64,000 nt of DNA, taken from the NCBI RefSeq assembly GCF_056712565.1, contig NZ_CM160072.1, one strand, 5' to 3'. The notes beneath the pieces were generated by a model. It was not told where the DNA came from. It ran no database searches and saw only the letters and a list, made by a program, of their open reading frames with translations. The position numbers and the translations under genes are program-made. Positions 1,641 through 62,693 of this stretch are shown here, in pieces; the stretch's first letter is position 1; every line of letters begins with the position of its first letter.

Positions 1641-3593
<1,953 letters not shown>

Positions 3594-3596
3594 TCC

Positions 3597-4748
3597 TTAC
3601 AGCATCTCAATAAAGGCCGCGACACGGGTACTGAGCTGCCCGACATCCGAGGTGGAGTAGTCTGTTTCAATAGCGATATAAGGAATGTTGTGCTGCTGGC
3701 GCACATGACGTTTAATCGCCAGCGATTCCACCGCGTAGGTATGGCACGCCTGCAAAATCACATCAACTACGCCATCGACCTGATATTCCTCCACCATCTG
3801 GCTGAGCATTTTCAGGCGCTGATCGTTCGGCGAAACACAGGAGCAGCCAATCGCCAGATATTTATCCGCCAGCGCGTCGTAGACATCGCCCGTTTCTGCC
3901 ACGCATTGCTCGGTCGCTTTCGCCCCGGTGCAGTTTTCATAACCGACAACCCAGCCGCCATTCTCTTCAATCGCGCGCACCACTTTTTCTGCTGCGCCGC
4001 CAATCGGGCAGCCGGTGATTAAAATGCGCGGACGCGGGTCCAGTCGCTGGCCTTCTTCCCACTGCTGACGAACGCGGGCGGTCATTGCATCCAGTTCATT
4101 GATCAACGCCTCTTTATCGAACCGGAAGGTTGCGCCGTAAACCACTTTCAGAATGTCGCTGCCGCTAAGCGCCGGAGGATTTAACTGCCCAAGATGATAA
4201 AAGTTGGCCAGTGCGCGACGTTCGCGGTTTTTCAGCGCAATGGCATCGCGCAGAGCATCTTCGCTAATCTCGTGCCCAAAACGTTCTTCTACCGTTTTTT
4301 GCAAGCGCAGCATCTCGGCTTTCCATAATGCACGCGAGGCATCGTCCTTAACGCTGTTTGGCAACTGCATCACATGAACGGGCTTAAATTCTGCCATGTA
4401 TTCATACATTTTCTTTTTGCCGTCGCAGGTGGTTTCACCGACCACCAGATCAGAAAAGTAGAAGTAGGGGCATTTATCGGTTTTGCCGAAGCCGTAGCTG
4501 CTTTTAATCAGCGGGCAGAGGTTGCGCGGCAGATCTTTCTCGGCTTCTTCAATGGTTTCATCAGAGGTGGAACATAGCGAAACCACAACCGCACCGGCTG
4601 CCATCGGGATCTCTTGCGGCATAAAGGTGCAGTAGGTGCCAACCAGCGGAATGCCGCGCTCCTTGAGATCCATGACGGTGAGAAAGCCTTTCTGGCGAGC
4701 TTCAGAGAACTGATCGAAAATGGCGGGTAGATCGGTGACAAGTGACAT
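3597..4748 (-). CDS. yjiM: 2-hydroxyacyl-CoA dehydratase D-component-like protein
   Basis: ORF 3597..4769; start set at the Met of MSLVTDLPAIF to match the remembered K-12 length (383 aa); cysteine-rich HgdB/BcrC-like sequence. Confidence 0.85.
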   Translation of the reverse strand: MSLVTDLPAIFDQFSEARQKGFLTVMDLKERGIPLVGTYCTFMPQEIPMAAGAVVVSLCSTSDETIEEAEKDLPRNLCPLIKSSYGFGKTDKCPYFYFSDLVVGETTCDGKKKMYEYMAEFKPVHVMQLPNSVKDDASRALWKAEMLRLQKTVEERFGHEISEDALRDAIALKNRERRALANFYHLGQLNPPALSGSDILKVVYGATFRFDKEALINELDAMTARVRQQWEEGQRLDPRPRILITGCPIGGAAEKVVRAIEENGGWVVGYENCTGAKATEQCVAETGDVYDALADKYLAIGCSCVSPNDQRLKMLSQMVEEYQVDGVVDVILQACHTYAVESLAIKRHVRQQHNIPYIAIETDYSTSDVGQLSTRVAAFIEML

Positions 4749-4863
4749 GATTTTCCTTCCCCGTACCACGGGAGATAATGAAAAGAGGCCACATTATTAC
4801 CATTCTTTTAGTGTGGTTTATTTGATCTCTCTCGCGGTTAGCCACTTAGTTTTTCATGGATTT

Positions 4864-6144
4864 CTATAAATTGCCGAGGGGGAACAAGGCCGGGAGCTGC
4901 GACAGCAAATACAAAATAAGTCCAATACAACCGCCAACCAGCGTACCGTTGACACGGATAAACTGGAGATCTTTGCCGATATTTAACTCGATTTGCCGCG
5001 ACATATCCCGTGCGTCCCAGCTTTTTACCGTGTCGCTGATATGGCGAGTCAGGAATGCGGAAAACTCAGGCGCAATGCGGTGTGCGGCTTGTTCCAGATG
5101 ACCATTTAACGACGCCCGCAAGGCATCATCGGCAATTAACGTTTCGCCAAACCATTGACCCGCCCGCGCGATACGTTCTTTCACACGAGAATCTTCACTG
5201 TTGATATCCGCATTCAGCCATTCCCGTAAATCCCCCCACAATTCACTGAGATAGCGGTTAAAAGCTTCATCTTCTTTCAGATAGCTTTTTACGGCATCGG
5301 CTCGCGCTGCCATTTCCGGATCGTTTTTCAGCTTGTCGATCAGGGCAAAAGTGGCGCGATCAAACGCATGGCGGATCTGATGCGCACGATCGCGGCTGAT
5401 ATCATCAAGCAAAGAATTCACCGCGTCAGAAACCAACTCCGCGCTATGTTCGCCCAGCCATTCAGTGGGCAAAATTTTGGCTTTCAGTGGATGCTCGCTC
5501 TCCAGCCAGCGAACAATTTGCTGGGCGATAAACTTGCGCGATTTATCGCGCTGGAGAAGGGCGATCAACTGTGCGATCAGCGTATCGAGCAGCACCTGAT
5601 GACGATCGTTTCTGGTCATGCTCTCCAGAATCAGTGCGCTGGTGCCGGAAAGATCGACCTTATCGATCGCCCGGTGGACCGCGCGCTTAAGCAGGCGCTG
5701 AATACGCGCATCATCGGTCAGTTCGAGAAAACCGCTCATGATCTGTAACAGATGCTGACCAACGCGGCGGGCGTTCTCCGGCTGACTAAACCAGTTGCCA
5801 ATCAACAACGCCGGTTCGTGACGTCGAATCAATGCCACCAGCGATTGGGTATCGAGAAATTTTTCCTGCACGAACTGGCCGAGATTTTCGCCAATCCGGT
5901 CTTTATTACGCGGGATAATCGCCGTATGACGAGAAATGATCGGAATCGGCACGCGGCGAAACAGCGCCACCACCGCAAACCAGTCCGCCAGCGCGCCGAC
6001 CATCGCCGCTTCAGCAATCGCCTTCACACCGCTCACCCAAAAATTGGGCGGCAAAAACAGCGTAACGACAAAGGTAGCAGCGGCGATAAGCAGTAAAGAG
6101 AGAGCCAACATTTTGGCGCGTCTGAGTTCAATGAGTTTATTCAT
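4864..6144 (-). CDS. yjiN: DUF445 inner-membrane protein YjiN
   Basis: ORF 4864..6180; start set at [11 protein letters not shown] (426 aa); N-terminal transmembrane segment. Confidence 0.85.
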
Positions 6145-6328
6145 ATCGTAAGAATAGAGCCTGACGGTAAGAAAACGCAAAAAGCGAGATATCTTCCATA
6201 AAAATGTATCGTTTGCAGAAGAATAAAAATAGCCTGGAAACCGCCTCGGGGAATAGGAAATAGCCAGGTGTGAATGGCTTTGTTAGTCGCTAAAGTTGGG
6301 CCATCTTATCTACAGGTGACGGATCGCC

Positions 6329-7249
6329 ATGACAAACTTTACGACCAGCACGCCGCATGACGCATTATTTAAATCCTTTCTCACACACTCTGACACCGCG
6401 CGGGATTTTATGGAGATCCACTTACCCAAAGATTTACGTGAACTGTGCGATCTCGATAGCTTAAAACTGGAATCCGCCAGCTTTGTCGATGAAAAATTGC
6501 GGGCGCTACATTCCGATATTCTGTGGTCGGTAAAGACCCGTGAAGGCGATGGCTATATTTATGTAGTGATTGAACATCAGAGCCGTGAGGATATTCATAT
6601 GGCCTTTCGTCTGATGCGATATTCCATGGCGGTGATGCAGCGCCATATCGAACATGATAAACGCCGGCAGCTACCACTGGTCATCCCGATGCTGTTTTAT
6701 CACGGTAGCCGTAGCCCTTATCCTTGGTCTTTGTGCTGGCTGGACGAATTTGCCGACCCAACTACCGCACGGAAGCTTTATACCGCCGCGTTCCCGCTGG
6801 TGGATATCACTGTCGTGCCAGACGACGAGATTGTGCAGCATCGCAGAGTCGCCCTGTTGGAGTTGATCCAAAAGCATATTCGCCAGCGCGATCTGATGGG
6901 GCTTATTGACCAACTGGTAGTATTACTGGTTACAGAGTGTGCTAATGACAGCCAGATAACTGCGCTGTTAAATTACATTTTACTGACTGGTGATGAAGCG
7001 CGTTTTAATGAGTTTATCAGTGAAATTACCCGTCGACTGCCACAACAAAGGGAGCGAATAATGACGATTGCAGAGCGAATTCATAATGATGGATATATAA
7101 AAGGGGAACAGCGCATTCTTCGATTGTTTTTGCAGAATGGGGTAGATCCTGAATGGATACAAAAGATTACCGGACTTTCGGCAGAGCAAATACAGGCATT
7201 AGAGCAGCCCTTGCCTGAGCGTGAGCCTTATTCATGGCTCAAGAGCTAA
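6329..7249 (+). CDS. rpnD: Rpn-family recombination-promoting nuclease (YhgA-like, PD-(D/E)XK transposase-like), apparently intact RpnD homologue
   Basis: 306-aa ORF beginning [20 protein letters not shown], typical Rpn N-terminus. K-12 has this locus split into yjiP/yjiQ as I recall; here it is one uninterrupted frame. Confidence 0.8.
7061..7249 (+). CDS. Candidate internally initiated small protein (RpnS-like) in frame with the rpn C-terminus
   Basis: In-frame ATG at 7061 preceded by a strong Shine-Dalgarno AGGGAG at 7048-7053 inside the rpn ORF; would give a 62-aa C-terminal peptide. Confidence 0.4.
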
Positions 7250-7275
7250 TCAGAGACGGATGACAAACGCAAAGC

Positions 7276-7374
7276 TGCCTGATGCGCTACGCTTATCAGA
7301 CCTACATTATCTCTGCAATCTATTGAATTTGCGCGGTTTGTAGGCCGGATAAGGCGTTCACGCCGCATCCGGCA
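7276..7374. repeat. REP (repetitive extragenic palindrome) elements downstream of rpn
   Basis: GCCTGATGCGCTACGCTTATCAGACCTAC and GTAGGCCGGATAAGGCGTTCACGCCGCATCCGGCA motifs typical of E. coli REP sequences. Confidence 0.7.
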
Positions 7375-7654
7375 TGAACGAAGCACACTTTACGTGGCGA
7401 TGATAGTGACCTTCCTGCACCAACCTTGCCGCCGCCATTTATGTGAACGGTACATTAACGCTGCTGGTGGCAGCAAATGCAGACCCGGTGCGTGTTACAG
7501 CAGGTGAGAGATGAACGGTTAAAGGATATTGGGTTATGCAGGGAGGATGTGGTGTAATGGAGAGAGTCCTTCACGAAACGATGGGATTTATATGTCACCT
7601 CGTCAGATAAGGGGTTATTATTGCGAAATCATCGCTTCACGGAAAGACGTCAGA

Positions 7655-9748
7655 ATGAAAGCTACAGAAGCCCGCCTACTCGATTTTTTAAAACGTTCGC
7701 AGCAGTTCGTTATTACCATTTATCAACGGACTTATTCATGGACAGAACAACAATGTCGGCAACTTTGGGACGACATCATTCGTGCCGGAAAGCGTGACGA
7801 TATATCAGCGCATTTTATCGGTTCGGTTGTTTATATTGAGCAGGGGTTGTATCAGGTTTCTGGTATTTCTCCGTTACTGGTCATTGATGGTCAACAAAGG
7901 CTGACGACCGCAATGTTGCTGATTGAGGCTTTATCGCGTCATCTTGGCGAAGACGAAGTTTTTGATGGCTTTTCAGCAATGAAATTGCGTAATTATTATT
8001 TACTCAATCCTTATGAGTCCGGCGAGAAAGGATTTAAATTACTGCTGACCGAGACTGATAAAGACAGTTTGCTGGCGTTAATAAAACAAAGACCAATGCC
8101 AGAAAACTATTCCCATCGAATAATGGAAAACTTTACTTTCTTTGATGAACAAATTACCAAACTCGGTGATGACTTGATCCCCTTATGTCGTGGGTTAGCA
8201 AAGTTATTAATTGTCGATGTGGCGCTTAATCGTGGTCAGGATAATCCGCAACTGATTTTTGAAAGTATGAACTCCACCGGTAAGGCATTAAGTCAGGCCG
8301 ATCTGGTGCGCAATTTTATTCTGATGGGCCTCGAACCAGAGCATCAAACCCGGTTGTATGAAGATCACTGGCGTCCAATGGAAGTCGCGTTTGGTCAGCA
8401 AGGTTACAGCGAATATTTTGACAGTTTTATGCGTCATTATCTGACGGTAAAAACGGGGGAGATCCCTCGGACAGATGAAGTCTATGAGGCATTTAAACTC
8501 CATGCCCGCAGCCAGAGTGTTGCTGAAAAAGGCGTAGATCGGCTGGTTGAAGATATTCACATCTACGCGGAGTATTACTGTGCAATGGCATTGGGAAAAG
8601 AAAGTGACAAATCGCTTGCTACGGCTTTTCAGGATTTGCGCGAGTTAAAGGTCGATGTGGCGTATCCTTTCTTACTGGCGCTTTATCATGACTATAAAAA
8701 TGGCGTTTTGTCTCACGAAGATTTCCTGAGCATAATTCGTTTAATTGAATCTTATGTTTTCCGCCGTGCAGTATGTGCGATTCCGACAAATTCTCTTAAC
8801 AAGACGTTTGCTACTTTTTATAAGGTCATTAATAAAGAAAAATATCTGGAAAGTATTCAGGTACATTTTCTGAATCTGCCTTCATATCGTCGTTTCCCCA
8901 ACGATGATGAATTTAAACGGGAATTAAAAGTTCGTGATCTCTATAATTTCCGTAGTCGCAGCTACTGGTTACGACGACTGGAAAACGATAAACGCAGAGA
9001 GCGCGTGGAAGAGTTTACGATTGAGCATATTATGCCGCAGAACGAAAATTTGTCGGCTAAATGGCGTGAAGAGCTGGGAAGTGACTGGCAACGCATTCAT
9101 AAAGAACTGTTGCATACGTTGGGGAATCTCACATTAACGCGCTATAACTCCCGCTACAGTGACAGACCTTTCGCGGAAAAACGCGATATTGAAGACGGCT
9201 TTAAACATAGCCCGCTCTATTTGAATATCGGTCTTGGACAGTGCGAAAAATGGGATGAAGCAGCCATTCGCGCCCGTGCAGATCGTCTGGCCGATCTCGC
9301 GGTTCAGGTCTGGCAAGCGCCTGCTCTTCCTGAAGAGGTTTTAGCTGTTTATCGGGCGCAGCCGGAGAACAAAACCAGTTACAGCCTGAGTGATTATCCT
9401 TTTCTTGCTGATGGTTCGCATAGCCGGGTGTTATTTGATCATCTTCGCGATGAAGTTATGCGCCTGGACGCAGGGATCACGCAGGAAGTTTTAAAGCTCT
9501 ATATTGCGTTTAAAGCTGAAACGAATTTTGTTGATGTTGTACCGCAAAAAAGCCGACTGCGGTTGTCGCTTAATATGCAGTTTCATGAACTGGTCGATCC
9601 GAAAGGTATTGCCAAAGATGTGACAAATGTTGGGCGATGGGGCAATGGTGATGTGGAAATTGGTTTCAGTGACCTCGCACAACTTCCTTACATTATGGGA
9701 TTAATTCGTCAGGCATTTGAAAAACAGATGGAGAGCGCGTTGGTATAA
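7655..9748 (+). CDS. DUF262 (ParB/Srx-like, DGQQR motif) plus DUF1524 (His-Me finger, HNH-like) fusion protein; putative GmrSD-family type IV modification-dependent restriction endonuclease
   Basis: ORF 7529..9748 (739 aa); start proposed at ATG 7655 (MKATEARLLDFLKRSQQFVITIYQRTYSW, ~697 aa). N-terminal motifs IYQRTYSW and VIDGQQRLTT; C-terminal motif EHIMPQNE...HTLGNLTLTRYN; a further ~100-aa C-terminal extension. Lies between rpn and symE-hsdSMR-mrr. Confidence 0.7.
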   Translation: MKATEARLLDFLKRSQQFVITIYQRTYSWTEQQCRQLWDDIIRAGKRDDISAHFIGSVVYIEQGLYQVSGISPLLVIDGQQRLTTAMLLIEALSRHLGEDEVFDGFSAMKLRNYYLLNPYESGEKGFKLLLTETDKDSLLALIKQRPMPENYSHRIMENFTFFDEQITKLGDDLIPLCRGLAKLLIVDVALNRGQDNPQLIFESMNSTGKALSQADLVRNFILMGLEPEHQTRLYEDHWRPMEVAFGQQGYSEYFDSFMRHYLTVKTGEIPRTDEVYEAFKLHARSQSVAEKGVDRLVEDIHIYAEYYCAMALGKESDKSLATAFQDLRELKVDVAYPFLLALYHDYKNGVLSHEDFLSIIRLIESYVFRRAVCAIPTNSLNKTFATFYKVINKEKYLESIQVHFLNLPSYRRFPNDDEFKRELKVRDLYNFRSRSYWLRRLENDKRRERVEEFTIEHIMPQNENLSAKWREELGSDWQRIHKELLHTLGNLTLTRYNSRYSDRPFAEKRDIEDGFKHSPLYLNIGLGQCEKWDEAAIRARADRLADLAVQVWQAPALPEEVLAVYRAQPENKTSYSLSDYPFLADGSHSRVLFDHLRDEVMRLDAGITQEVLKLYIAFKAETNFVDVVPQKSRLRLSLNMQFHELVDPKGIAKDVTNVGRWGNGDVEIGFSDLAQLPYIMGLIRQAFEKQMESALV

Positions 9749-9762
9749 CGTGGCGAATAATA

Positions 9763-9786
9763 CCCGGTAGCACTGGCGCTACCGGG
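9763..9786. terminator. Hairpin between the convergent GmrSD-like gene and symE (possible bidirectional terminator)
   Basis: Inverted repeat CCCGGTAGC / GCTACCGGG with a 6-nt loop; no clear U-tract, so weak. Confidence 0.35.
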
Positions 9787-9794
9787 TCAATGTA

Positions 9795-10136
9795 TCAGGC
9801 GACTTTCTGTTTACCCGCAATCACCCCAATAAACTCCTGCACCTGCCTTTGTTTACGCGCCGACAGCTTGCACACCTGGCGAAGCGACTGCATCAGTTCG
9901 CTCTCTTCGGCGGCGGGGGGTTGGGCGGTGAGGACAATACAGCCTTCCATCACTTTGACATCTATCGCCGTGCCAGTGGCAAAACCGGCGGCTTCCAGCC
10001 ACTGACCTTTCAGGGTGATGGCGGGAATACGGCTGTAATCCGGGTAGCGACTCGCATAACTCACGGTTAATTGACGGTTATTTGCCGGGGAGACTTCTGC
10101 TTCGAACGGTTGTGCAATAGAATGCGTGTCAGTCAT
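9795..10136 (-). CDS. symE: SOS-induced toxin-like protein SymE (AbrB/SpoVT fold)
   Basis: ORF 9795..10193; start set at [15 protein letters not shown] (113 aa) matching K-12 SymE; LexA-box-like site upstream. Confidence 0.88.
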
Positions 10137-10207
10137 GATTACTATTCTCCATAAATAGTGATTGTGATGAGCGGTGCGGGTGTGTTGGCGCACATCCGCA
10201 TCGCGCT
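10131..10207 (+). ncRNA. symR: SymR antisense sRNA (approximate bounds) overlapping the symE start and 5-prime UTR
   Basis: Placed by established knowledge of the symE/SymR type I-like pair; coordinates approximate, not derived from a promoter or terminator read. Confidence 0.4.
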
Positions 10208-10213
10208 AAATAC

Positions 10214-10229
10214 CTGGATATATCATCAG
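10214..10229. promoter_or_regulatory. LexA box-like site upstream of symE
   Basis: CTGATGATATATCCAG on the symE strand fits CTG-N10-CAG, 12 of 16 matches to CTGTATATATATACAG. Confidence 0.5.
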
Positions 10230-10364
10230 TAAATACAGGGAAAGTCCAGCTAAAAATAGAATAAAATGGGAAGTTTCTGGAACGATTTAAATATATTTGT
10301 GTGAGTTATGATTGGCGTAAAAATAATAAATAGCGCACCAGAAAGGTGCGCCAGAAAATAATGA

Positions 10365-11732
10365 TCAGGACTTTTTACGCGAGGCTTTTTTACCCCCGCT
10401 GGCTGCGCGTTCAGCTTTGATTTTCTCCAGCAACGCGGCGGCGCTGTTTTCACCGCTGATTAATTCCGGGTTTTCGGCCCGCCACTGGGCGGTGAGTTCA
10501 CCACGGAACGCTTTTGCCAGGATGGATTGCGTCAGATTGTTGACGCGGGCTAAGGCGTTGTTGACCTGTTTTTCTATTGTGTCGGCGTAGGCGAAGAGTT
10601 GCTCGACGCGGCGAACGATTTCAGCTTGTTCGGGAAGGGGGGGAACAGTTATTGGGTATGCAATTAATTTCTGTGCATTAATATTTGATTGACTGACCCC
10701 ATCAGATTTAACTGAATAGCAATATTGTCTCCCCAAAATGCTATTTAAATGGTAGTTAAGATAGTCAGGGTTTAAATCAGGTAAACATTGAACCCTAATC
10801 AAATAACCTGCATAAATAGCTGGTTGCTCTGATTTATATATGGCTGTTTTCCCGACAAGTTCAGGACTATTTGTACGATTGAATAATACATCATTGTACT
10901 CAAGTTTATACTTTTCAATTTCTATGGTATCTGACGTATAGACTAGATCCGTCCAGTCCAACTTTCCTCCCTGAAGATTGCCCATTCTTAATACAGGAAT
11001 GAGTCCTTCTTTATTAGACTTAGATGACGTTCCGTAACTTGGTTTTTTTATAAACTCCCCAAGTTTGCCTTCTCTCCACCCAGACAGGCTTGAATTATCT
11101 CTCCAGTCTTCAGTTAGTTTTCCTCTCACCGCTGCACCCAGAACCGCCTGACGAAAACGTTTCAGGATTTGTGGGATTTGCTCAAGACGTGCTTTGGTGC
11201 TGTCTACCTGTGCCAGCAGCGTATCGAGTTTTTCAGCGATGATTTTTTGTTCGGCAAACGGTACAAGAACAAATGGTAATGTTTTCGCAGAACTACCAGA
11301 AATTTCTTTAAAAGTTGTTCCTGTGCCCATTTCCTCTGCAATATGTCTGATGTTGCGGAGAAAGTAATATGCATAATCAGGAAAAATGTCTGAAGGAAAA
11401 GCAAAACTTTTGAAACCCTGGTTAGTCGCAATCTCATTTGCAGCAATAGCAACATATCCAATCGGTGCCCGGCTACTAAAAAGTATAGTGCCTTTGGGCA
11501 TTAGTTTTGCTGAACAAGAGGAATAGCCTAGTGTAGTTAAATCTCTGGCACCATGTGAGATATATTTCTCTTTATAACCGCTCAAATCGGCAGGCGTAAG
11601 CCAGGCGACTCCCTCACCCGAAGGTGCAAAATTTTCAGCGACTCCCGATTTTGGTGTCCCACCAGAGATGACATCAGCAATGTCGCCTATTTCAATCTGT
11701 TCCCACCCCTCCGGCAATTTCCCAGCACTCAT
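10365..11732 (-). CDS. hsdS: Type I restriction-modification specificity subunit HsdS (type IA framework, non-EcoKI target-recognition domains)
   Basis: 455-aa ORF; N-terminal MSAGKLPEGW, central PFAEQKIIAEKLDTLLAQVDSTKAR...ILKRFRQAVLG and C-terminal PPLPEQAEIVRRVEQLFAYADTIEKQVNN...KAFRGELTAQWRAENP framework segments conserved, variable blocks between; 4-nt overlap with the hsdM stop. Confidence 0.9.
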   Translation of the reverse strand: MSAGKLPEGWEQIEIGDIADVISGGTPKSGVAENFAPSGEGVAWLTPADLSGYKEKYISHGARDLTTLGYSSCSAKLMPKGTILFSSRAPIGYVAIAANEIATNQGFKSFAFPSDIFPDYAYYFLRNIRHIAEEMGTGTTFKEISGSSAKTLPFVLVPFAEQKIIAEKLDTLLAQVDSTKARLEQIPQILKRFRQAVLGAAVRGKLTEDWRDNSSLSGWREGKLGEFIKKPSYGTSSKSNKEGLIPVLRMGNLQGGKLDWTDLVYTSDTIEIEKYKLEYNDVLFNRTNSPELVGKTAIYKSEQPAIYAGYLIRVQCLPDLNPDYLNYHLNSILGRQYCYSVKSDGVSQSNINAQKLIAYPITVPPLPEQAEIVRRVEQLFAYADTIEKQVNNALARVNNLTQSILAKAFRGELTAQWRAENPELISGENSAAALLEKIKAERAASGGKKASRKKS

Positions 11733-13318
11733 TCCTTCACCCCACCAAATGCTTCTTCCAGCAACTGGCGCTGCGCATCCGCCTCATCGCTCGCCCCCAG
11801 TTCACGCATCAGCGCATCCAGTTCAGACAGCGCCTGTACCAGTTCACCCATCGCTTCTGCCGCTAATACATCCGGCTCCGGCAGGTTGTCGGCATCAATA
11901 CTGTCTTTATCTTTCAGCCAGGAGATATCCAGCGAATCGGATTTCGCGGTGCGGATCCACTCGCGGCTGAACTTGCGCCAGCGGCTGGTAGCAAGATGCT
12001 GGTCGGTGTTTTTGTTCTCTTCGCTGTCGGCAATTTCCGTCTCTTCGGCGTTAAAACTCCATTCACCTTCAGTGCGCGGGCTTAAGCCGTGCGGGTCTTC
12101 GCCAAACACGCGCTCAAACGGTTGCAAATGCTCGTCGGTAAACGGCGTGCGTTTACCAAAGCTCGGCATATTGGTCCGCAGGTCGTACACCCACACGTCA
12201 TCGGTGCAGTTCTTATCCTGATTCGGGTTCGCCACCGTCCCTTTGATAAAGAACAGCACGTTGGTCTTCACGCCCTGCGCGTAAAAAATACCGGTCGGCA
12301 GACGCAGAATAGTGTGCAGATGACACTTATCCATCAGGTCACGACGGATGTCCGTACCTTTGCCGCCTTCAAACAGCACGTTATCCGGCACCACCACCGC
12401 CGCACGACCGCCGGGGTGCAGCGTTTCGATAATATGCTGCATAAAGCACAACTGTTTGTTGCTGGTCGGGTGAACAAAGGTGCGGGTAATGTTGGTGCCT
12501 GCGGCGCTGCCAAACGGCGGGTTAGTGGCGACAATATGCGCCTTCGGCAGGTTTTCGCCGTCGCTGCCCAGGGTGTTGCCCAGACGGATTGCGCCGCCGT
12601 GGTCGAGGTTGCCTTCAATATCGTGCAGCAGGCAGTTCATCAGCGCCAGACGACGGGTGCCGGGCACCAGTTCGAGGCCGATAAACGCGCGGTGGATCTG
12701 GAAATCCTGCGTGTCGCCATCAAGGTCGTCCAGATCGTTAGTCTGCGACTTAACGTAGCGGTCGGCTTCAATCAAAAAGCCCGCCGTACCGGCTGCCGGA
12801 TCCTGTACCACTTCACGTGGCTGCGGTTTCAGCAGATGAATAATGGTTTTAATCAGCGGACGCGGGGTGAAGTACTGGCCCGCGCCAGACTTGGTTTCAT
12901 TGGCGTTCTTCTGCAGCAGCCCTTCGTACATATCGCCGAAGTCATCGCGCGACTTACCGTGCGCACCGTTGTACCAGTCCAGTGAATCCATATTGCTGAC
13001 CAGTGCGGTTATTTGTTTCGGCTCGGTGATGGTGGTACTAACATTATGAAAAACTGCCTGTACCAGCTTTTTGTCATCTTCGCCTAAATGCACGAGCATT
13101 TTTCGGTAGAACTGCAACTGCTCCTGGCCGATGCGGGATTTCAGGTCATCCCAGCGGTAACCTTCCGGCAGGTATTCCGCTTCCTGCCCGGTCTCTTTAC
13201 ACATTTTCAAAAACAGCAGCGAGGCGAGTTCATTGACGTAGTTTTGATAGGAAACGCCGCCATCGCGCAGGTTGTCGCACAGCTTCCACAGCTTCGCGAC
13301 CAGATCGTTATTGTTCAT
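11729..13318 (-). CDS. hsdM: Type I R-M N6-adenine DNA methyltransferase subunit HsdM
   Basis: 529-aa ORF; NPPF catalytic motif (IVATNPPFGSAAG) and AdoMet-binding region; same length as K-12 HsdM. Confidence 0.95.
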   Translation of the reverse strand: MNNNDLVAKLWKLCDNLRDGGVSYQNYVNELASLLFLKMCKETGQEAEYLPEGYRWDDLKSRIGQEQLQFYRKMLVHLGEDDKKLVQAVFHNVSTTITEPKQITALVSNMDSLDWYNGAHGKSRDDFGDMYEGLLQKNANETKSGAGQYFTPRPLIKTIIHLLKPQPREVVQDPAAGTAGFLIEADRYVKSQTNDLDDLDGDTQDFQIHRAFIGLELVPGTRRLALMNCLLHDIEGNLDHGGAIRLGNTLGSDGENLPKAHIVATNPPFGSAAGTNITRTFVHPTSNKQLCFMQHIIETLHPGGRAAVVVPDNVLFEGGKGTDIRRDLMDKCHLHTILRLPTGIFYAQGVKTNVLFFIKGTVANPNQDKNCTDDVWVYDLRTNMPSFGKRTPFTDEHLQPFERVFGEDPHGLSPRTEGEWSFNAEETEIADSEENKNTDQHLATSRWRKFSREWIRTAKSDSLDISWLKDKDSIDADNLPEPDVLAAEAMGELVQALSELDALMRELGASDEADAQRQLLEEAFGGVKE

Positions 13319-13519
13319 TGTGAGTTCCGTAAATTAAACAACGGCCCGCATTGTTTGGGGCCGCAGAAGAAGAAATTGCCGAGGGTAATATACACAAAAT
13401 CATTCAGGTTGCATCAAGGCGGCAAGTGAGTGAATCCCCGGGAGCGTACAGAAGTACGTGACCGGGGTGAACGAGCGCAGCCAACGCAGAGGCAGCCTGA
13501 AGGATGAAGTGTATACGTG

Positions 13520-16500
13520 TCAGGCCAGCTCGTCCCAGATATAATCGCTGAATTTATCAAGCAGGTTGTCGAGATTATCGTCAAAGGTTCTTTGTAGCAT
13601 CGCCTTACCGCCGCGGCGGTGGAAGTTGCCGGTTTTGAAGACATCGTCGTCGAGCACCACTTTCTCTTTCAGCGCCTGCGCTAAACGATCGAGCCAGCTT
13701 AATTGCTCGCTGCTCCAGTCGTTTTCACCCTTAATGCGCGTCAGCGCGTGATCGACACGTTCCTCAAACGGTTTCAGCGCATCGCCCACCGCAGCGCGGC
13801 GAATATGACCAATCAGCCGGGCGGCGATATCTTCATTGCGCGTCTCTTTCCATGCTTTGCGCAGGGAAGATTCCTCAAAATGCTGGCGGTCAAACCACTC
13901 CTGGAGCTCGACCAGCCCTTTACGGGTGAGATCGCGCGGGCGATTGATCACCGCCTGCAATGCCGGCTGCGCGTTCGGGGAACGTTGCACCAGCGAGTCA
14001 AAGGCTTCGAGGAAATCCTGCGGCGTGTCGTAATCACCGTACAGCGATTTTACACTCACCACTTCATCGTCGATATCGAGGAAGATCGGCGCATCATTCA
14101 GGTTGTTGATGTCCGTTTTCAGCTTTTCCAGACGGGCGATAAAGCCAGGCAGTTTGTTAAAGACTTCGGCGCTCCAGTGCGGCCCTTTTTCCCGCAGGCG
14201 CGAGGCGAAGCCGTTAAAGTTCACGCCCGCCGCGTCCTGGCATAGCTCATCCAGACGACGCACCTGTTTATCTATCGTTTCGCTGCGGTCACGGTTAAAC
14301 GTGGCCAGGCCGATGATGCGCTGGAGCTTCGCCACCAATTGTTCATGGCTGTGCTCGGCAAAGCTACGGCCATCCGCTTCGGTGATTTTATAGGTTTCTG
14401 AATCGGTAATTTCATTGACCAGCGTTTGCAGTTCCACCTTCGGACGCACCACCACCGGACGCATGGTGTCGACGCTCTCCAGCGTGCTGTAGATATCGAC
14501 ACAGTCGAAAATCTTAAAGCTGGTTTTATTCACGTCCGGGCATAAGCGCGTGGCGCGGCCTTTCATCTGCTCGTACAGAATACGGCTGCGTACTTTACGC
14601 AGGAACACGATATTACAGATCGACGGAATATCGACGCCGGTTGTCAGCAGGTCGACGGTTACCACGATATTGGGCAGCCGCTCTTTATTGAAGCGGGTGA
14701 TCATGGTCTGCACTTTGCGCGCGTCTTTATCGGCATCACCGGTGATCTTGATGATCGCGTCGTGCTCCAGTTGCGGATACTTTTTCTTGAACGCGGTACG
14801 CAACTCTTCCACCACCATATCGGCATGGGCATTGGTAACGCAGAAGACCAGCGTTTTTTGCGACCCGGTCGGGTCAAGGTAGTTGGTGAGCTCGTTACAG
14901 ACGGCGCGGTTAAACGCCGGGATCACCAGGCCACGGTTAAAGTCGGCGACCTCAAAATCCTGATCGTCTTCCAGGGTATCGTTGATCACTTCTCCCTGCG
15001 GGCTGATGCGCTCTACCTGTTCGCCCTTGGAGAGATAAACCCCCTCCTGGGCGTTGCGGGTGATGATCTGAATCGGCGGATCCTGGTCGATCAGAAAACC
15101 GTCGATAACCGCGGTACGGTAGGTATAACGGTAAACCGGCTCGCCGAAAATCTGCACCGTATGCAGCGCCGGGGTGGCGGTGAGGGCGATTTTTACCGCA
15201 TCGAAGTGATCGAGAATGCGACGGTAGGCAGAAACGTAATCCAGCTGGCTGCGGAACTGCAGCTCGCCTTCGGTCTGCTCTTTATCGAGAATATAGCCGC
15301 GATGCGCTTCATCGACGACGATACAGTCGTAACGGGCCACCGGCATCGGTTCATCTGATTGTAGGGTGCGTTTCACCAGCGACTGTACGGTGGCAACGTG
15401 AATTTTGGTGCTGTCTTCGGGGAATTTATCCGTCAGCCCTTTAATGTCGAAAATGCTGTTGAAGGTGTCGCCGTTAATACGCGTATCTTCAAACGCCCCC
15501 AGTGCCTGCTCGCCAAGAGAACGGCGATCGACAAGGAAGAGAATGCGTTTAAAACGCTGGGACTGGATCAGGCGGAACATCATGGCAATTGCGGTGCGGG
15601 TTTTACCGGTACCGGTCGCCATCGCCAGCAGGATCTCTTGTTGACCCTTGACGATTGCCTTTTCCACCGCGCGGACGGCATCTTCCTGGTAATAACGCAG
15701 GCCCAGCTCGCTCATGCCCGGGTTATCGGCAAACCACTGATTCTGTTTTTGCGGTTCGCTGCCGAGCATTTCCAGCAGCTCTTCCGGGCGATGCCACTCG
15801 GGTAAGGCTTTCGACATATTGCGGGTATCACGCACGTCGCGATACCAGATGCCACTTTTAGTCTTCATTGCTGCGCGATATTCGCGCCCGTTGGTGGAGT
15901 AGCAGAAGGGGATTTTAAACCGTTGTTGGCCGCTGGTGTCCTGCCAGCTAGTTTCATACTCCGGCACAGCTTCATGCACTTCATCCGGTGAGTAATGCTC
16001 AAGCAAGGTTTCCCGCAGGAAGCCATTATCGAAGCATTTGCTGTAGCGATACGACTCATTGAGCTTGCCGGGAACGTCGATATTTTTACGTTTCGCCTCT
16101 ACCACCGCGATGGGCTTGAGGCCGACAAACAGCACATAATCCGCAAAGCCCTGATTACCCGTTTCATCTTTCCCGGTCGGCCATTCGGCAATGGCTTTAT
16201 TGACGCCGGGTTCCGGGCGTGCGCCTTTGGAGAAGCGCAGGGTTTTGCTATCGGCCTGCCAGCCTGCTTTACGCAGTTGCGCGTCAATCAGGAAGCGACT
16301 CTCTTCTTCGCTAAGGTTGAGTGTGCGCTTGATGGCCTGATCGGTAATTTCTTTGTGGTAAGCCTTACGTTCCTGTTCGGTCTGTTTGGCCAGCTCCGCG
16401 TTCTTCTCGGCGAGCTGTGCTTCCAGCGCCGCAAGGCGAGCCTGGGTTTGCGCTTCTGTTTCCTGCTGTTTGCCTTCCAGAATGGCGATATAGCCGTTCA

Positions 16501-17032
16501 GGGCAACCAGCTTCTGCTGTTGCGCTTCGACTTCTGCCCGAGTCTGCGCTTTTTCTCGCGCCTGCTGTTCAAGCTGTTGTTTTAGCGTCAGCACTTCCTG
16601 GTGATAGAGGTTTTCGCCACGTTCCGGCAACACAAATACCGGCACCGGGAAGTCATAATCTTTGGTGACCAGACGGTAGTACCAGACAGCCAGGCGGAAC
16701 CCGAGTCGCAGGCACATCTGGGCATCGTCGAGATCGTTATGGTATTCGTGCACCGCCTGGTTACCAATGCGGCGTAATTTGTGGAATACAGAGAGAATGT
16801 TGTCATCAACGAAGGCGATTTTGCCGAGTTCGCGCAGGAGATCGTGTTGATTCTCACAAGGGGGGATGTTGAGTAACAGACCAAGATGTTTCGCTGTAGC
16901 TTCGCCAAACATACGCATTTTAATCAGCGTCGTGTTGGGATCATCCGGGTAGTTATTTTCCGCCGCACAGGCGATGGCATAAGTGAAGTCGTTGACGCCC
17001 TTCAGGAATTCGAAGTTGGATTTATTCATCAT
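13520..17032 (-). CDS. hsdR: Type I R-M restriction subunit HsdR (SF2 helicase/translocase plus endonuclease)
   Basis: 1170-aa ORF; Walker A (AMATGTGKT) and DEAH-like (VVDEAHR) helicase motifs; synteny. Confidence 0.95.
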   Translation of the reverse strand: MMNKSNFEFLKGVNDFTYAIACAAENNYPDDPNTTLIKMRMFGEATAKHLGLLLNIPPCENQHDLLRELGKIAFVDDNILSVFHKLRRIGNQAVHEYHNDLDDAQMCLRLGFRLAVWYYRLVTKDYDFPVPVFVLPERGENLYHQEVLTLKQQLEQQAREKAQTRAEVEAQQQKLVALNGYIAILEGKQQETEAQTQARLAALEAQLAEKNAELAKQTEQERKAYHKEITDQAIKRTLNLSEEESRFLIDAQLRKAGWQADSKTLRFSKGARPEPGVNKAIAEWPTGKDETGNQGFADYVLFVGLKPIAVVEAKRKNIDVPGKLNESYRYSKCFDNGFLRETLLEHYSPDEVHEAVPEYETSWQDTSGQQRFKIPFCYSTNGREYRAAMKTKSGIWYRDVRDTRNMSKALPEWHRPEELLEMLGSEPQKQNQWFADNPGMSELGLRYYQEDAVRAVEKAIVKGQQEILLAMATGTGKTRTAIAMMFRLIQSQRFKRILFLVDRRSLGEQALGAFEDTRINGDTFNSIFDIKGLTDKFPEDSTKIHVATVQSLVKRTLQSDEPMPVARYDCIVVDEAHRGYILDKEQTEGELQFRSQLDYVSAYRRILDHFDAVKIALTATPALHTVQIFGEPVYRYTYRTAVIDGFLIDQDPPIQIITRNAQEGVYLSKGEQVERISPQGEVINDTLEDDQDFEVADFNRGLVIPAFNRAVCNELTNYLDPTGSQKTLVFCVTNAHADMVVEELRTAFKKKYPQLEHDAIIKITGDADKDARKVQTMITRFNKERLPNIVVTVDLLTTGVDIPSICNIVFLRKVRSRILYEQMKGRATRLCPDVNKTSFKIFDCVDIYSTLESVDTMRPVVVRPKVELQTLVNEITDSETYKITEADGRSFAEHSHEQLVAKLQRIIGLATFNRDRSETIDKQVRRLDELCQDAAGVNFNGFASRLREKGPHWSAEVFNKLPGFIARLEKLKTDINNLNDAPIFLDIDDEVVSVKSLYGDYDTPQDFLEAFDSLVQRSPNAQPALQAVINRPRDLTRKGLVELQEWFDRQHFEESSLRKAWKETRNEDIAARLIGHIRRAAVGDALKPFEERVDHALTRIKGENDWSSEQLSWLDRLAQALKEKVVLDDDVFKTGNFHRRGGKAMLQRTFDDNLDNLLDKFSDYIWDELA

Positions 17033-17219: not shown

Positions 17220-18134
17220 ATGACGGTTCCTACCTATGACAAATTTATTGAACCTGTTCTGCGTTATCTGGCAACAAAACCGGAAGGTGCAGCCGCGCGT
17301 GATGTTCATGAGGCTGCCGCGGATGCATTAGGACTGGATGACAGCCAGCGATCGAAAGTCATTACCAGCGGACAACTTGTTTATAAAAATCGTGCAGGCT
17401 GGGCACATGACCGTTTAAAACGTGCCGGGTTGTCGCAAAGTTTGTCGCGTGGCAAATGGTGCCTGACTCCTGCGGGTTTTGACTGGGTTGCGTCTCATCC
17501 CCAGCCAATGACGGAGCAGGAGATGAACCATCTGGCCTTCAATTTTGTGAATGTCAAACTTAAGTCACGGCCGGATGCCGTCGATTTAGATCCGAAAGCC
17601 GACTCTCCCGATCATGAAGAACTTGCAAAGAGCAGCCCGGACGATCGGTTAGATCAGGCGCTAAAAGAGCTTCGTGATGCGGTGGCTGATGAGGTTCTGG
17701 AAAACTTATTGCAGGTTTCTCCTTCGCGCTTTGAAGTCATTGTTCTGGATGTTTTGCATCGCCTGGGGTATGGCGGCCACCGTGATGATTTGCAGCGTGT
17801 TGGCGGTACTGGAGATGGTGGCATCGATGGTGTGATATCGCTTGATAAACTTGGCCTGGAGAAAGTTTATGTTCAGGCAAAACGTTGGCAGAATACTGTA
17901 GGCAGGCCAGAATTACAGGCATTTTACGGCGCACTGGCTGGGCAAAAAGCGAAACGTGGGGTGTTTATTACCACTTCTGGATTTACTTCTCAGGCGCGTG
18001 ACTTTGCCCAATCCGTCGAGGGTATGGTGTTGGTTGATGGGGAACGCCTGGTGCACTTAATGATCGAAAACGAAGTAGGGGTTTCTTCACGTTTGTTGAA
18101 GGTGCCGAAACTGGATATGGATTATTTTGAGTGA
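17220..18134 (+). CDS. mrr: Mrr type IV methylation-dependent restriction endonuclease
   Basis: 304-aa ORF with N-terminal winged-helix and C-terminal Mrr-cat region; divergent from hsdR as in K-12. Confidence 0.92.
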   Translation: MTVPTYDKFIEPVLRYLATKPEGAAARDVHEAAADALGLDDSQRSKVITSGQLVYKNRAGWAHDRLKRAGLSQSLSRGKWCLTPAGFDWVASHPQPMTEQEMNHLAFNFVNVKLKSRPDAVDLDPKADSPDHEELAKSSPDDRLDQALKELRDAVADEVLENLLQVSPSRFEVIVLDVLHRLGYGGHRDDLQRVGGTGDGGIDGVISLDKLGLEKVYVQAKRWQNTVGRPELQAFYGALAGQKAKRGVFITTSGFTSQARDFAQSVEGMVLVDGERLVHLMIENEVGVSSRLLKVPKLDMDYFE

Positions 18135-18140
18135 AATATC

Positions 18141-18172
18141 AGGCCGGATGCGGCTGCGCCTTATCCGGCCCA
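18141..18172. repeat. REP element between mrr and yjiA
   Basis: GGCCGGATGCGGCTGCGCCTTATCCGGCC palindrome. Confidence 0.7.
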
Positions 18173-18179
18173 TAACCCC

Positions 18180-19136
18180 TTACTTCCTCAACCCCGCAAA
18201 CGCCGCCCGAATCTCATCCTCCGGCAGCTGAATCCCGATAAACACCATCGTGCTATGCGGTTTTTCATCGCCCCACGGCCTGTCCCAGTCGGCGCTGTAG
18301 AGGCGCTGGACGCCCTGGAACAGCAGGCGGTTAGGTTCGCCGTCAATCCACAGCATCCCTTTGTAACGCAGCAGTTTATCTGCCGATTCCAGCAGCAGGT
18401 TTTCCATCACGCGGGAAACTTCGCTGATATCTACCGGGTAATCCAGTTCCACCACAATCGACGAAATATCGTTTTGTTTGTCCGCGATAAAGTGAAAACG
18501 TGGCTTGGTGCTGACGACGTTTTCTTCCAGCATAAAACCGTTGGTGTTGAACAACAGGCCCAGGTCGATGTCGCCGTGGGTGACGGTGTAGACCGGTGCA
18601 CGGGCGTTGATGCGCGCCAGGCGTTCACGCAGTTTTTCTGCTTCGCCTGCGACGTCGGTTTTAGTCAGCAGAATACGGTCGGCGTAGCCAACCTGGGACT
18701 GGGCGATGGTGAACTGGTTCATCTGCTCATCGGCATGTACCGCATCCACCAGCGCAATCACGCCATCCAGCAGGTAACGCTGGCATAAAATCTCATGGGA
18801 GAAAAAGGTCTGAATAATCGGGCCGGGATCGGCCATGCCGGTGCATTCAATGACCAGACGGTCGAACTGAATATTGCCCTTGTCGAGATTATCCAGCAGG
18901 TCGAGTAGGGCGTCTTCCAGCTCGTTGGAGCGCGAACAGCAGATGCAGCCGTTGGTCAGCGTTTTGATCTGCGTGGCGCGGTCGCCAATCAGTTGATCAT
19001 CAACGGAGACTTCGCCGAATTCGTTTTCAATCACGGCAATCTTGTAGCCGTGTTGTTCGTTAAGAATATGGCGCAGCAGGGTGGTTTTTCCTGCGCCTAA
19101 AAAACCGGTGAGTAGGGTAACTGCAATCGGGTTCAT
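18180..19136 (-). CDS. yjiA: CobW/COG0523-family GTPase YjiA
   Basis: ORF 18180..19220; start set at MNPIAVTLLTGFLGAGKTTL (318 aa, P-loop right after the start) so it does not overlap yjiX. Confidence 0.9.
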   Translation of the reverse strand: MNPIAVTLLTGFLGAGKTTLLRHILNEQHGYKIAVIENEFGEVSVDDQLIGDRATQIKTLTNGCICCSRSNELEDALLDLLDNLDKGNIQFDRLVIECTGMADPGPIIQTFFSHEILCQRYLLDGVIALVDAVHADEQMNQFTIAQSQVGYADRILLTKTDVAGEAEKLRERLARINARAPVYTVTHGDIDLGLLFNTNGFMLEENVVSTKPRFHFIADKQNDISSIVVELDYPVDISEVSRVMENLLLESADKLLRYKGMLWIDGEPNRLLFQGVQRLYSADWDRPWGDEKPHSTMVFIGIQLPEDEIRAAFAGLRK

Positions 19137-19146
19137 GCTCTCTCCA

Positions 19147-19350
19147 TTAACAACAGCGCATACCGCCTTTACCATCGCCGCCGTAGCGCGCGTTCTGGCG
19201 TTCGCGGAAGAATTCTTCATAGCTCATGTACGGCTTGTCGGGATGGTTGGTCTTCATATGCTCGACGTAGTTGTCGTAGTCTGGAATGCCAATCAACATC
19301 TTCGCCGCCTGGCCGAGATATTTTTTTGCCTGTCCTAAGTTACCAAACAT
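19147..19350 (-). CDS. yjiX: DUF466 small protein YjiX
   Basis: 67-aa ORF ending in a CC motif, immediately downstream of btsT as in K-12. Confidence 0.88.
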
Positions 19351-19398
19351 TTTGCCTTCCAGATATGCGTAAAGCCCGGAAGGTCCGGGCTGGGGATT

Positions 19399-19465
<67 letters not shown>

Positions 19466-23650: not shown

Positions 23651-23660
23651 CGTAATGATG

Positions 23661-23693
23661 CCGGATGAGTATTTCATCCGGCGTTTTTATTAT
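23661..23693 (+). terminator. Rho-independent terminator downstream of tsr
   Basis: Hairpin CCGGATGA / TCATCCGG followed by a T-rich tract (CGTTTTTATTATT). Confidence 0.7.
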
Positions 23694-24964
23694 TAAACCA
23701 GGAACAGTGAAATCGCCGGGATATATGTCACCAGCATTAGCATTAACAGTAGAGCCGCCAGTAGGGGCAGGGATTGTTTAAAGAAATTTCCCACCGAAAC
23801 TTGCGTGATATTACATACCAGCAGCATCACGGTACCTACCGGTGGCGTGAATGCGCCAATCGACAGGTTGAAGATCATGATGATGCCAAAATGCACCGGA
23901 TCGATGCCAAAGTGTTCGACCACCGGTTTTAATAGTGGTACCAGGATCAGCAAAATGGCGTTTCCTTCCAGAAACATCCCCAGCGTCAGCAGCAATATGT
24001 TGATAATCAACAGGAACATGTATTTGTTTTCGGTCAGCGAAGTCACAAAATTCGCCACTGCGACACCAGCATGTTCCATTGAGAAAATCCATCCCAATGC
24101 GGCGCTGGCCATGATTACCAGCATCACCGATGCGGTTGCGCGTGCCGTTTCGCCCAATGCTTTGACGACATGAGAAATCCGCATTTCACGATAGATAAAA
24201 AAGCCAATCGCCAGCACGATTAGCACCGCTACTGCACCTGCTTCTGTTGGGGTGAAAATGTTAGCGCGAATACCACCCACCACAGCAAAAATGAGGAACA
24301 GCGCAGGCCAGGCCTGTCCCAGCGAGAACACCACCTCTTTGCCCGTAGGCCAGCTTTCACGCGAGGGTTTAGCGTTAGTTTTGCGGGCGACAAGGTAGAC
24401 GGTAAACATCAGTACGACTGCGCATAGCAAACCAGGTACCAGTCCGGCGATAAACATTTTTCCGATAGAGACATCGGCAACCAGACCGTAAATAATCAGG
24501 GCTATTCCAGGCGGTATGATCGGGGTGACTAACGAGCCACCAGCGGTAATGGCGGCGGCAAACGCGCGATTGTAGCCTTTACGTTCCATCTCCGGCACCA
24601 TCATGCGCGACAGCATCGCCGCGTCAGCAAGGTTAGAGGCGCTGACGCCGCCCATCATGGTGCTGACGAGAATGTTTGCCACGCCCAGTCCGCCGCGCAT
24701 TTTCCCCACCAGAACGTTGGCAATGTGCAGGATGCGTTCGGCAATGCCGGTGTAGCTCATTAGTGTGCCGAGCAAGATAAAAAACGGAATTGCCAGCAAT
24801 GATGGGCTTTGCGTTGGCGCGATTAGTCTTTGCACGGCAATTTCAATCGGTACGCTGGAGAAGAATAAAAAGTAAGCGATGATGCCAATAAACATCGCCA
24901 GATAGACCCGAATGTTGAGAAACAAACAGACGATCATTAGCGGAATAATCAATAACCAACTCAT
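23693..24964 (-). CDS. TRAP transporter large permease (DctM family)
   Basis: 423-aa polytopic ORF with DctM-like sequence; 4-nt overlap with the upstream small permease gene; not present at this position in K-12. Confidence 0.85.
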   Translation of the reverse strand: MSWLLIIPLMIVCLFLNIRVYLAMFIGIIAYFLFFSSVPIEIAVQRLIAPTQSPSLLAIPFFILLGTLMSYTGIAERILHIANVLVGKMRGGLGVANILVSTMMGGVSASNLADAAMLSRMMVPEMERKGYNRAFAAAITAGGSLVTPIIPPGIALIIYGLVADVSIGKMFIAGLVPGLLCAVVLMFTVYLVARKTNAKPSRESWPTGKEVVFSLGQAWPALFLIFAVVGGIRANIFTPTEAGAVAVLIVLAIGFFIYREMRISHVVKALGETARATASVMLVIMASAALGWIFSMEHAGVAVANFVTSLTENKYMFLLIINILLLTLGMFLEGNAILLILVPLLKPVVEHFGIDPVHFGIIMIFNLSIGAFTPPVGTVMLLVCNITQVSVGNFFKQSLPLLAALLLMLMLVTYIPAISLFLV

Positions 24965-25434
24965 TGCATTTTGTCTCCGCTATCGGATTGTTTTGTATCG
25001 TTTATTAACCAGTAGAGGGTATAAATAGCCGTTGCCAGTGCGCCGACAGGGACCGCCAGATCGATCCAGAACCAGGAAACTTTCAGAATTTGTGTCACTT
25101 TAAACTGCGCCATTTCGGCTAGTCGGTAGCCCAGCCAGGCCATATAAAGCAGCAGTGCGATGGAGAGAAGGGCGACCAGTACTGCAATAACACGCCTGAG
25201 TTTGCCTGGAAGCATCTCCATCAGGAAGGGAATGGTCAGGTGCGCCCTGTCACGTTCCGCCACCACTCCACCTAACATCACCACCCAAATCATCAGCATT
25301 CCCGACATTTCTTCTGTCCATTGAAGCGGTTGGCCGATGAAATAACGCATAAATACCGCTCCAATTGTCACCACAACCAGAACGAATAGCGCAAAGGCAG
25401 CACTAAATTCTGCCACTTTGCCAAAAAGACGCAT
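24961..25434 (-). CDS. TRAP transporter small permease (DctQ family)
   Basis: 157-aa ORF with four predicted TM helices, located between the SBP and large-permease genes. Confidence 0.8.
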   Translation of the reverse strand: MRLFGKVAEFSAAFALFVLVVVTIGAVFMRYFIGQPLQWTEEMSGMLMIWVVMLGGVVAERDRAHLTIPFLMEMLPGKLRRVIAVLVALLSIALLLYMAWLGYRLAEMAQFKVTQILKVSWFWIDLAVPVGALATAIYTLYWLINDTKQSDSGDKMQ

Positions 25435-25497
25435 GAAACCTCCTGTTAGTGCGTGTCCTGCCTAAGAGAGATGAGGCAGGACGCTGAGCATTAATGC

Positions 25498-62268: not shown

Positions 62269-62297
62269 TCATCTTTATAAGATGTTGAGTGGGATTA

Positions 62298-62345: not shown

Positions 62346-62359
62346 GCCAGGGAGGGGGA

Positions 62360-62692: not shown

Positions 62693-62693
62693 A

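Follow-up and report, generated by a model that had tools for sequence, protein, structure and literature searches.

A GmrSD-family gene in the mcrBC slot: modular structure of the yjiN-yjiA immigration control region of Escherichia coli

Between yjiN and hsdS, the 64,000-nucleotide stretch of DNA analysed here (contig NZ_CM160072.1 of assembly GCF_056712565.1; the window) is more compact than the same interval of Escherichia coli K-12, and the question is how the two came to differ. A preliminary description of the window, made from the sequence without database searches, read the difference as a cassette exchange at fixed junctions. Our analysis indicates that the island is very probably the known E. 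coli immigration control region (ICR, defence hotspot 36), a modular segment bounded by yjiN and yjiA, with a GmrSD-family restriction gene (gmrSD) in the mcrBC slot. The configuration found in the window is typical of sequence type 95 (ST95)-like B2 strains such as APEC O1, which we take to be a member of that lineage.

Layout of the island and its published counterparts

The order of genes was determined from open reading frames (ORFs), Pfam matches and the RefSeq annotation of 100%-identical genomes, and reads yjiN, rpnD, a repetitive extragenic palindromic (REP) pair, gmrSD, symE/symR, hsdS, hsdM, hsdR, mrr and yjiA. In the annotation of MG1655 the order is yjiN-mdtM-ytiE-rpnD(pseudogene)-yjiR-yjiS-yjiT-yjiV-mcrC-mcrB-symE-symR-hsdSMR-mrr-yjiA. 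The gene content of the two intervals thus differs, as the preliminary description had stated. Of the two, only the K-12 ICR has mdtM, yjiR, an intact yjiS, yjiT, yjiV, mcrCB, a nonsense codon in rpnD and other HsdS target-recognition domains, and it is without gmrSD. BLASTN of the window against K-12 found no mdtM, yjiT, yjiV or mcrCB sequence, which agrees with the absences listed earlier, but short remnants of yjiR and yjiS, genes listed as absent too, remain in place. Similarly, rpn, a REP cluster, one nuclease gene and symE had been correctly named as the contents of the interval, but the yjiR fragment, the yjiS remnant and symR had been missed.

Both anchors of the published region were found. 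On the left stands yjiN (DUF445; 4864-6144, minus strand), assigned by Pfam DUF445 (399 bits) and by the RefSeq annotation of an identical genome, and 98% identical to K-12. On the right stands the GTPase gene yjiA (18180-19136, minus strand), assigned from the RefSeq annotation of an identical genome. These two genes are the ICR anchors given in the EcoSal Plus 2025 review, which also equates the ICR with hotspot 36 (PMC12707154), and in the window both are colinear with K-12 at 97-98% identity and bound the variable segment. The flanks had been described as conserved, and BLASTN bore this out, with identities to K-12 of 98% at the yjiN end and 97% over the hsdM-yjiA stretch. The K-12 framework genes yjiN, rpnD, symE/symR, hsdM, hsdR, mrr and yjiA are kept in the window at 92-98% identity. 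The restriction genes hsdSMR, mrr and gmrSD were all present by Pfam and PADLOC, and the slot contents differed among strains at one chromosomal position.

A short island might also be an assembly or scaffolding artefact, such as a collapsed region, and the only point in favour of this is the compactness relative to K-12. The comparison with other genomes refuted it. Several closed E. coli chromosomes (strain 104, HS13-1, SF-468 and others) match window positions 4800-12000 (7.2 kb) at 100% identity, and an identical stretch recurs in many independent closed genomes. Among the matches listed, 14 reached 100.0% over the 7.2-kb stretch, and APEC O1 was 99.7% identical to it. All frequencies given here were counted in complete E. 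coli genomes (n = 5,426). The whole layout, including the hsdS of the window, was found in 253 of the 5,426 genomes, counted where at least 80% of the 7.2-kb stretch was covered.

According to He et al. 2015 (PMC4437046), APECO1_2080 of APEC O1 is a homologue of GmrSD that has diverged (24% identity to Eco94GmrSD), and in the ICR gmrSD takes the place of mcrBC. The ICR of APEC O1 was listed there with a putative transposase, an endoribonuclease, hsdS, hsdM, hsdR, Mrr and a GTPase. In the review, GmrSD accounted for 12% and McrBC for 6% of 9,040 enterobacterial loci, and mdtM, symE/symR and rpn were named as variable passengers of the ICR (PMC12707154). The published GmrSD-type allele (APEC O1 APECO1_2080, UTI89_C5048, CFT073 c5421; He et al. 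2015, Fig. 8; EcoSal Plus 2025, Fig. 10) has the same locus, anchors and order as the window, its transposase-like gene corresponding to rpn and its endoribonuclease gene to symE, and the gmrSD genes of APEC O1 and the window are 100% identical. Nothing substantive differs between the two, and the gene start at position 7655 (697 amino acids, aa) stands against a quoted length of 733 aa.

The island, its variability and the replacement of mcrBC by gmrSD are already known, and the novelty implied by the preliminary description did not stand, since the arrangement had been published. The loss of mdtM, the yjiR/yjiS scar and the stop-to-stop junctions are not described in the accounts of He et al. 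2015 and EcoSal 2025. Only the base-level junctions, the empty-slot allele and how often it occurs, the erroneous splitting of gmrSD in the annotation, the independent knock-outs of this gene and a Pro-to-Thr substitution at residue 21 (P21T) are mildly new. These findings carry little weight as discovery and raise no new question; their use lies in tidying, for defence-system annotation or for cloning into ST95/APEC strains.

Breakpoints and slot states

Breakpoints were mapped by BLASTN against K-12, by hand alignments and by a three-way alignment of the window, O157:H7 and K-12. The window departs from K-12 by three separate differences and not by one cassette. The single cassette proposed earlier would have spanned yjiN to symE, with the REP block and a convergent hairpin as the recombination boundaries. 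The conserved flanks and the differing interior agree with such an exchange, and its two boundaries can be compared with the mapped junctions.

The first difference is the mdtM-loss junction at 6179-6183, where the K-12 segment with mdtM and ytiE is absent (1,560 bp, NC_000913 4567287-4568846). Window 1898-6183 aligns with K-12 at 98% as far as the base preceding the mdtM stop codon, and window 6179-7391 corresponds to K-12 4568847-4570062, a 1.2-kb segment of rpnD and REP sequence with 92% identity. The flanking BLASTN alignments share 5 bp, and hand alignment showed a short CGCAAAAA-like similarity at the join. Of the 5,426 genomes, 4,704 have mdtM and 676 have the mdtM-less junction.

The REP pair (bacterial interspersed mosaic element-like) lies downstream of rpnD at 7276-7376. 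The REP core GCCGGATAAGGCGTT had 6 matches in the window against 0.1 expected, one of them at 7344-7358, and sub-threshold Rfam matches to REP-derived families (naRNA4/ES036) were found at 7298-7379. The REP block therefore exists, as the preliminary description had reported. However, it is not a breakpoint, because it lies inside the rpnD-REP segment that is common to the window and K-12 at 92% identity.

The second difference is a scar at 7392-7471, made up of two deletions of 421 bp and 1,262 bp relative to K-12, which left little of yjiR and removed the 5' half of yjiS. An internal 77-bp remnant of yjiR is left at 7395-7471 (minus strand; BLASTN 88% to K-12 yjiR, extracted K-12 locus 7485-7561), followed by a 3' remnant of yjiS (DUF1127) at 7465-7557 (plus strand), of which the last ~91 bp (7465-7555) are 88% identical to positions 8824-8914 of the extracted K-12 locus. 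The yjiR and yjiS alignments share 7 bp. What the Prokaryotic Genome Annotation Pipeline (PGAP) gives as a hypothetical protein of 27 aa at 7477-7557 is this yjiS remnant. The scar joined to gmrSD was found in 421 of the 5,426 genomes. These remnants speak against a single cassette, in that they indicate deletion and not replacement. Both the mdtM difference and the loss of yjiR with the 5' half of yjiS are probably lineage-specific deletions, with joins that overlap by 5-7 bp.

The third difference is the cargo swap itself, bounded by the stop codons of yjiS (7555-7557) and symE (9795-9797). Nothing in K-12 corresponds to window 7556-9798, which stands in for 7.6 kb of K-12 (yjiT, yjiV, mcrC and mcrB). 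In the three-way alignment all three sequences run together as far as the yjiS stop codon, after which K-12 departs, and K-12 homology restarts at the symE stop codon (BLASTN resumption at 9799). Between the convergent yjiS and symE stop codons there is a slot that holds one 2.2-kb low-GC gmrSD gene in the window, against yjiT-yjiV-mcrC-mcrB in K-12. A Pfam search of K-12 YjiT and YjiV gave no matches and no sign of GmrSD kinship.

Neither proposed boundary coincides with these edges. The left edge is the yjiS stop codon, about 180 bp to the right of the REP block, and the right edge is the symE stop codon. The hairpin was confirmed as a GC-rich structure between the convergent gmrSD and symE genes at 9762-9787, with a 10-bp stem (9762-9771/9778-9787; -20.1 kcal/mol, z = -2.55). 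It lies 8 bp from the right junction, which fits a role as boundary, but it is just inside the cargo, and K-12 and the empty allele have different hairpins there. The terminator scan did not call the hairpin, because a T-run is absent after the stem.

The slot between yjiS and symE was found in several states. gmrSD was present in 1,481 of the 5,426 genomes (1,359 with at least 80% query coverage), the empty junction in 920 and K-12-type mcrCB in 582-597. In the empty slot of FDAARGOS_144, an intact yjiS is followed by a 41-bp spacer with a hairpin and by symE. This allele shares the mdtM-less yjiN-rpnD junction (99% identity) and the convergent yjiS/symE frame with the window; unlike the window, it has no cargo, its yjiS is intact and its right half has an hsdR remnant and a 3'-5' exonuclease gene.

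The states of mdtM, yjiR/yjiS and gmrSD also combine differently in other genomes. O157:H7, KGu016, EC261 and HUSEC2011 have gmrSD together with mdtM, yjiR, an intact yjiS and a type IB hsd system, and the three differences can therefore be separated. In IAI39 and 400625 the left half is as in the window, but with type IB hsd, so that both type IA and type IB hsd are found beside the same gmrSD-symE pair. The frequencies are nested, with 676 genomes mdtM-less at the junction, 421 with the scar and 253 with the whole layout. Because the differences are separable, the island is a mosaic of modules, and we regard a single cassette exchange from yjiN to symE as very unlikely. What stands of the earlier proposal is the replaceable slot with its sharp junctions; the one cassette gave way to three independent differences.

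Delivery of the gmrSD cargo as, or by, a discrete mobile element (Rpn-mediated transposition, an insertion sequence (IS)-flanked unit or an integron-like cassette) was also considered. A gene of the Rpn 'putative transposase' family adjoins the cargo, the GC content of the cargo is low and close homologues occur in distant taxa, all of which would suit such an element. However, the repeat search found no direct or inverted repeats at the cargo ends beyond chance-level short matches, and no integrase or IS ORF was found in 6100-10400 by ORF listing, Pfam or RefSeq annotation. The terminal repeats, target-site duplication or integrase/transposase of a mobile cassette were therefore not found. 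Moreover, rpnD occurs in K-12 as well as in genomes with an empty slot, 1,481 of the 1,482 matching places in the complete E. coli genomes were chromosomal with a median of one per genome, and symE was among the features annotated under the full-length 95-100% matches, among the matches listed. We judge a mobile element to be extremely unlikely.

In the modular reading of the ICR, yjiN, rpnD, yjiS, symE and yjiA form a species-wide framework with alternative defence cargoes between them. The cargoes most likely moved between lineages through homologous recombination of the ordinary kind within these shared framework genes, which is the most economical mechanism.

The ICR can also hold GmrSD-family genes at its other end, beside yjiA. 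On the yjiA side of O157:H7 there is a split DUF262 and HNH pair (extracted locus 17748-19399). In SCU-115, an intact 699-aa paralogous allele with 73% nucleotide identity to the gmrSD of the window stands beside yjiA, followed by fic and brnA (extracted locus 8001-10100).

The GmrSD-family cargo gene

The cargo is a single-chain GmrSD-family type IV restriction endonuclease gene of 697 aa (7655-9748, plus strand), equivalent to APECO1_2080 and assigned from Pfam, the ORF and the fold. The ORF listing and direct translation showed one uninterrupted long ORF at 7529-9748 on the plus strand. We place the predicted start at the ATG at 7655, because homologues, including the 73%-identical allele of SCU-115, begin at MKATEARLL. 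Translation from an alternative ATG at 7547 yields 733 aa, in agreement with the published length of APECO1_2080.

Pfam matched the product with GmrSD_N (113.9 bits), GmrSD_C (94.1 bits) and DUF5655 (51.5 bits), and the domains follow in the order DUF262, DUF1524 and C-terminal DUF5655. The protein would accordingly combine a DUF262 ParB-like NTPase and a DUF1524 His-Me finger nuclease with the DUF5655 domain. In DUF262, the DGQQR motif (D78-R82) and the residues Q24 and R25 are present and invariant. In DUF1524, E457, H458, P461, N491 and N498 are conserved, in keeping with the (D/E)H...N...N definition of the His-Me finger motif (He et al. 2015, PMC4437046). PADLOC models matched by the protein were Orf5, HEC-06, mREase_IV and SspE, with the C-terminal domain matching the candidate model PDC-S18; no NCBIfam model matched.

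The fold gave the same assignment. An AlphaFold2 model with a predicted local distance difference test score of 89.5 was matched by Foldseek with probability 1.00 to DndI (9jfl, E = 8e-17), SspE (E = 6e-14) and BrxU (7p9k, E = 2e-5). With Eco94GmrSD, BrxU, SspE and DndI the protein shares DUF262 with its DGQQR and QR motifs and DUF1524 (EH...P...N...N), at 14-18% identity to the solved relatives and 24% to Eco94GmrSD. The nearest solved relatives are the phosphorothioate-sensing nucleases SspE and DndI rather than the hydroxymethylcytosine-specific GmrSD. Features of its own relative to the GmrSD relatives are P21T and the extra DUF5655 domain of ~100 aa at the C-terminus, which in a whole-protein Foldseek search resembled YjbR and DUF1801 weakly (E = 0.66 and 2.6). 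A C-terminal domain of this size (~100 aa) is missing in some family members of ~555-590 aa.

The composition of gmrSD differs from that of its flanks, a comparison that the preliminary description had called for. The GC content of gmrSD is 0.437 with 0.414 at third codon positions (GC3), against a GC of 0.53-0.55 (0.527 in yjiN) and a GC3 of 0.59-0.67 in yjiN, hsdM and hsdR. Full-length homologues with 70-82% identity were found in Citrobacter, Halomonas, Oceanimonas, Nitrincola and Kiritimatiella, and the family comprises 17,762 representative clusters at E ≤ 0.001. The low GC together with homologues in distant taxa suggests that the cargo is of foreign origin.

Just upstream of the gmrSD start, a sigma-70-like match was seen at 7592-7621 (ATGTCA, an 18-nucleotide spacer, TATTAT), of which the -10 hexamer lies within sequence conserved with O157:H7. 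This match is of relevance because the upstream yjiR-yjiS intergenic region is deleted in the window lineage.

RefSeq annotation by PGAP splits the intact gmrSD into a DUF262 pseudogene ('missing C-terminus') and a separate 387-aa GmrSD coding sequence, including in genomes that match the window exactly. Direct translation, in which the ORF is uninterrupted, ruled out a frameshift in the window as the source of this split. The use of broken alleles as reference proteins is the likely cause. Since intact copies are split in RefSeq, automated surveys of defence systems may err as to which genomes have a functional enzyme.

Broken alleles were found in three strains. gmrSD is frameshifted by a 1-bp deletion in O157:H7 (window position 8455) and by another in EC261 (window position 8127), and is broken by a nonsense codon at position 239 in HUSEC2011; the three lesions are independent of one another. 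An intact gene was found in the window lineage and in 400625, IAI39 and KGu016. At residue 21 (codon 7715-7717, in the IPxYQR motif), the alleles of the window, APEC O1 and strain 104 encode Thr. Pro is found there in 52/52 homologues compared (34-82% identity) and also in the alleles of O157:H7, IAI39, KGu016, EC261, HUSEC2011 and 400625. Because of the three different lesions and of Thr21 in the intact ORF of ST95-like strains, it is possible, though we put it forward tentatively and with some doubt, that the ICR gmrSD has been repeatedly inactivated in E. coli, which would point to a cost (self-toxicity) or to relaxed selection.

Family membership argues for a modification-dependent (type IV) nuclease. 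On the same grounds the island may provide a layered defence. Modified DNA would be cleaved by GmrSD and Mrr, and unmodified DNA by the EcoKI-family type I system, whose HsdS would give it a specificity of its own, with symE/symR and rpnD as the toxin-type modules.

Several points weigh against this account of the ICR and its cargo. We found no report in the literature of activity for the APECO1_2080 homologue, which is 24% identical to the characterised Eco94GmrSD, and the enzyme may be impaired by P21T. The exchange by homologous recombination is inferred from the mosaic structure and the positions of the junctions. Finally, the mdtM difference could be a deletion here or an insertion elsewhere.

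Other modules of the island and neighbouring segments

rpnD (6329-7249, plus strand) encodes an intact Rpn/YhgA-like PD-(D/E)XK nuclease of 306 aa, with matches to Pfam Transposase_31 (288 bits) and TIGR01784 (160.8 bits against a cut-off of 52.1). The ORF is full-length and covers positions 1-202 of the 203 of the Rpn profile (PF04754). The genes of the window and K-12 are equal in length and differ by 50 substitutions without indels, and codon 104, an in-frame stop in MG1655, is Gln in the window. Elsewhere, rpnD was seen as a variant with a 12-aa insertion in the C-terminal tail or as frameshifted or nonsense copies. RpnD is a recombination-promoting nuclease that is toxic when overexpressed (PMC5350276).

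symE (type I toxin/SOS-induced protein; 9795-10136, minus strand) matched Pfam SymE_toxin (76 bits) and an NCBIfam equivalog model (229 bits against a cut-off of 132). The antisense antitoxin small RNA symR (10131-10207, plus strand) matched Rfam RF01809 over its full length (95.8 bits against a gathering score of 61). symR overlaps the start of symE at 10136 on the minus strand, and the two have the arrangement of the symE/symR type I toxin-antitoxin pair.

The type IA system hsdS-hsdM-hsdR occupies 10365-17032 on the minus strand (hsdS 10365-11732) and was assigned by Pfam, PADLOC and NCBIfam. hsdM and hsdR are ~97% identical to EcoKI. Two parts of hsdS, 10632-11102 and 11258-11701, gave no K-12 match by BLASTN, and these unmatched variable parts imply a predicted type IA specificity other than that of EcoKI. 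The type IV restriction endonuclease gene mrr (17220-18134, plus strand) matched Pfam Mrr_cat and Mrr_N and PADLOC mREase_IV (575 bits).

Outside the island, two further segments of the window differ from K-12. At 23651-29001, a 5.35-kb segment takes the place of the K-12 lgoT region (1.65 kb) and holds genes for the TRAP transporter components DctM (23693-24964) and DctP (25498-26469) with a small ORF between them (24961-25434), and for a 557-aa Na+/H+ exchanger family protein (27139-28812). Between nadR and ettA, a 0.74-kb insert absent from K-12 lies at 62269-63009, with two adjacent ORFs at 62361-62693 (111 aa) and 62695-62979 (94 aa) followed by a REP-like element. Judged by eye, this ORF pair (62361-62979) has the look of a RelE/HigB-type toxin with a helix-turn-helix antitoxin.

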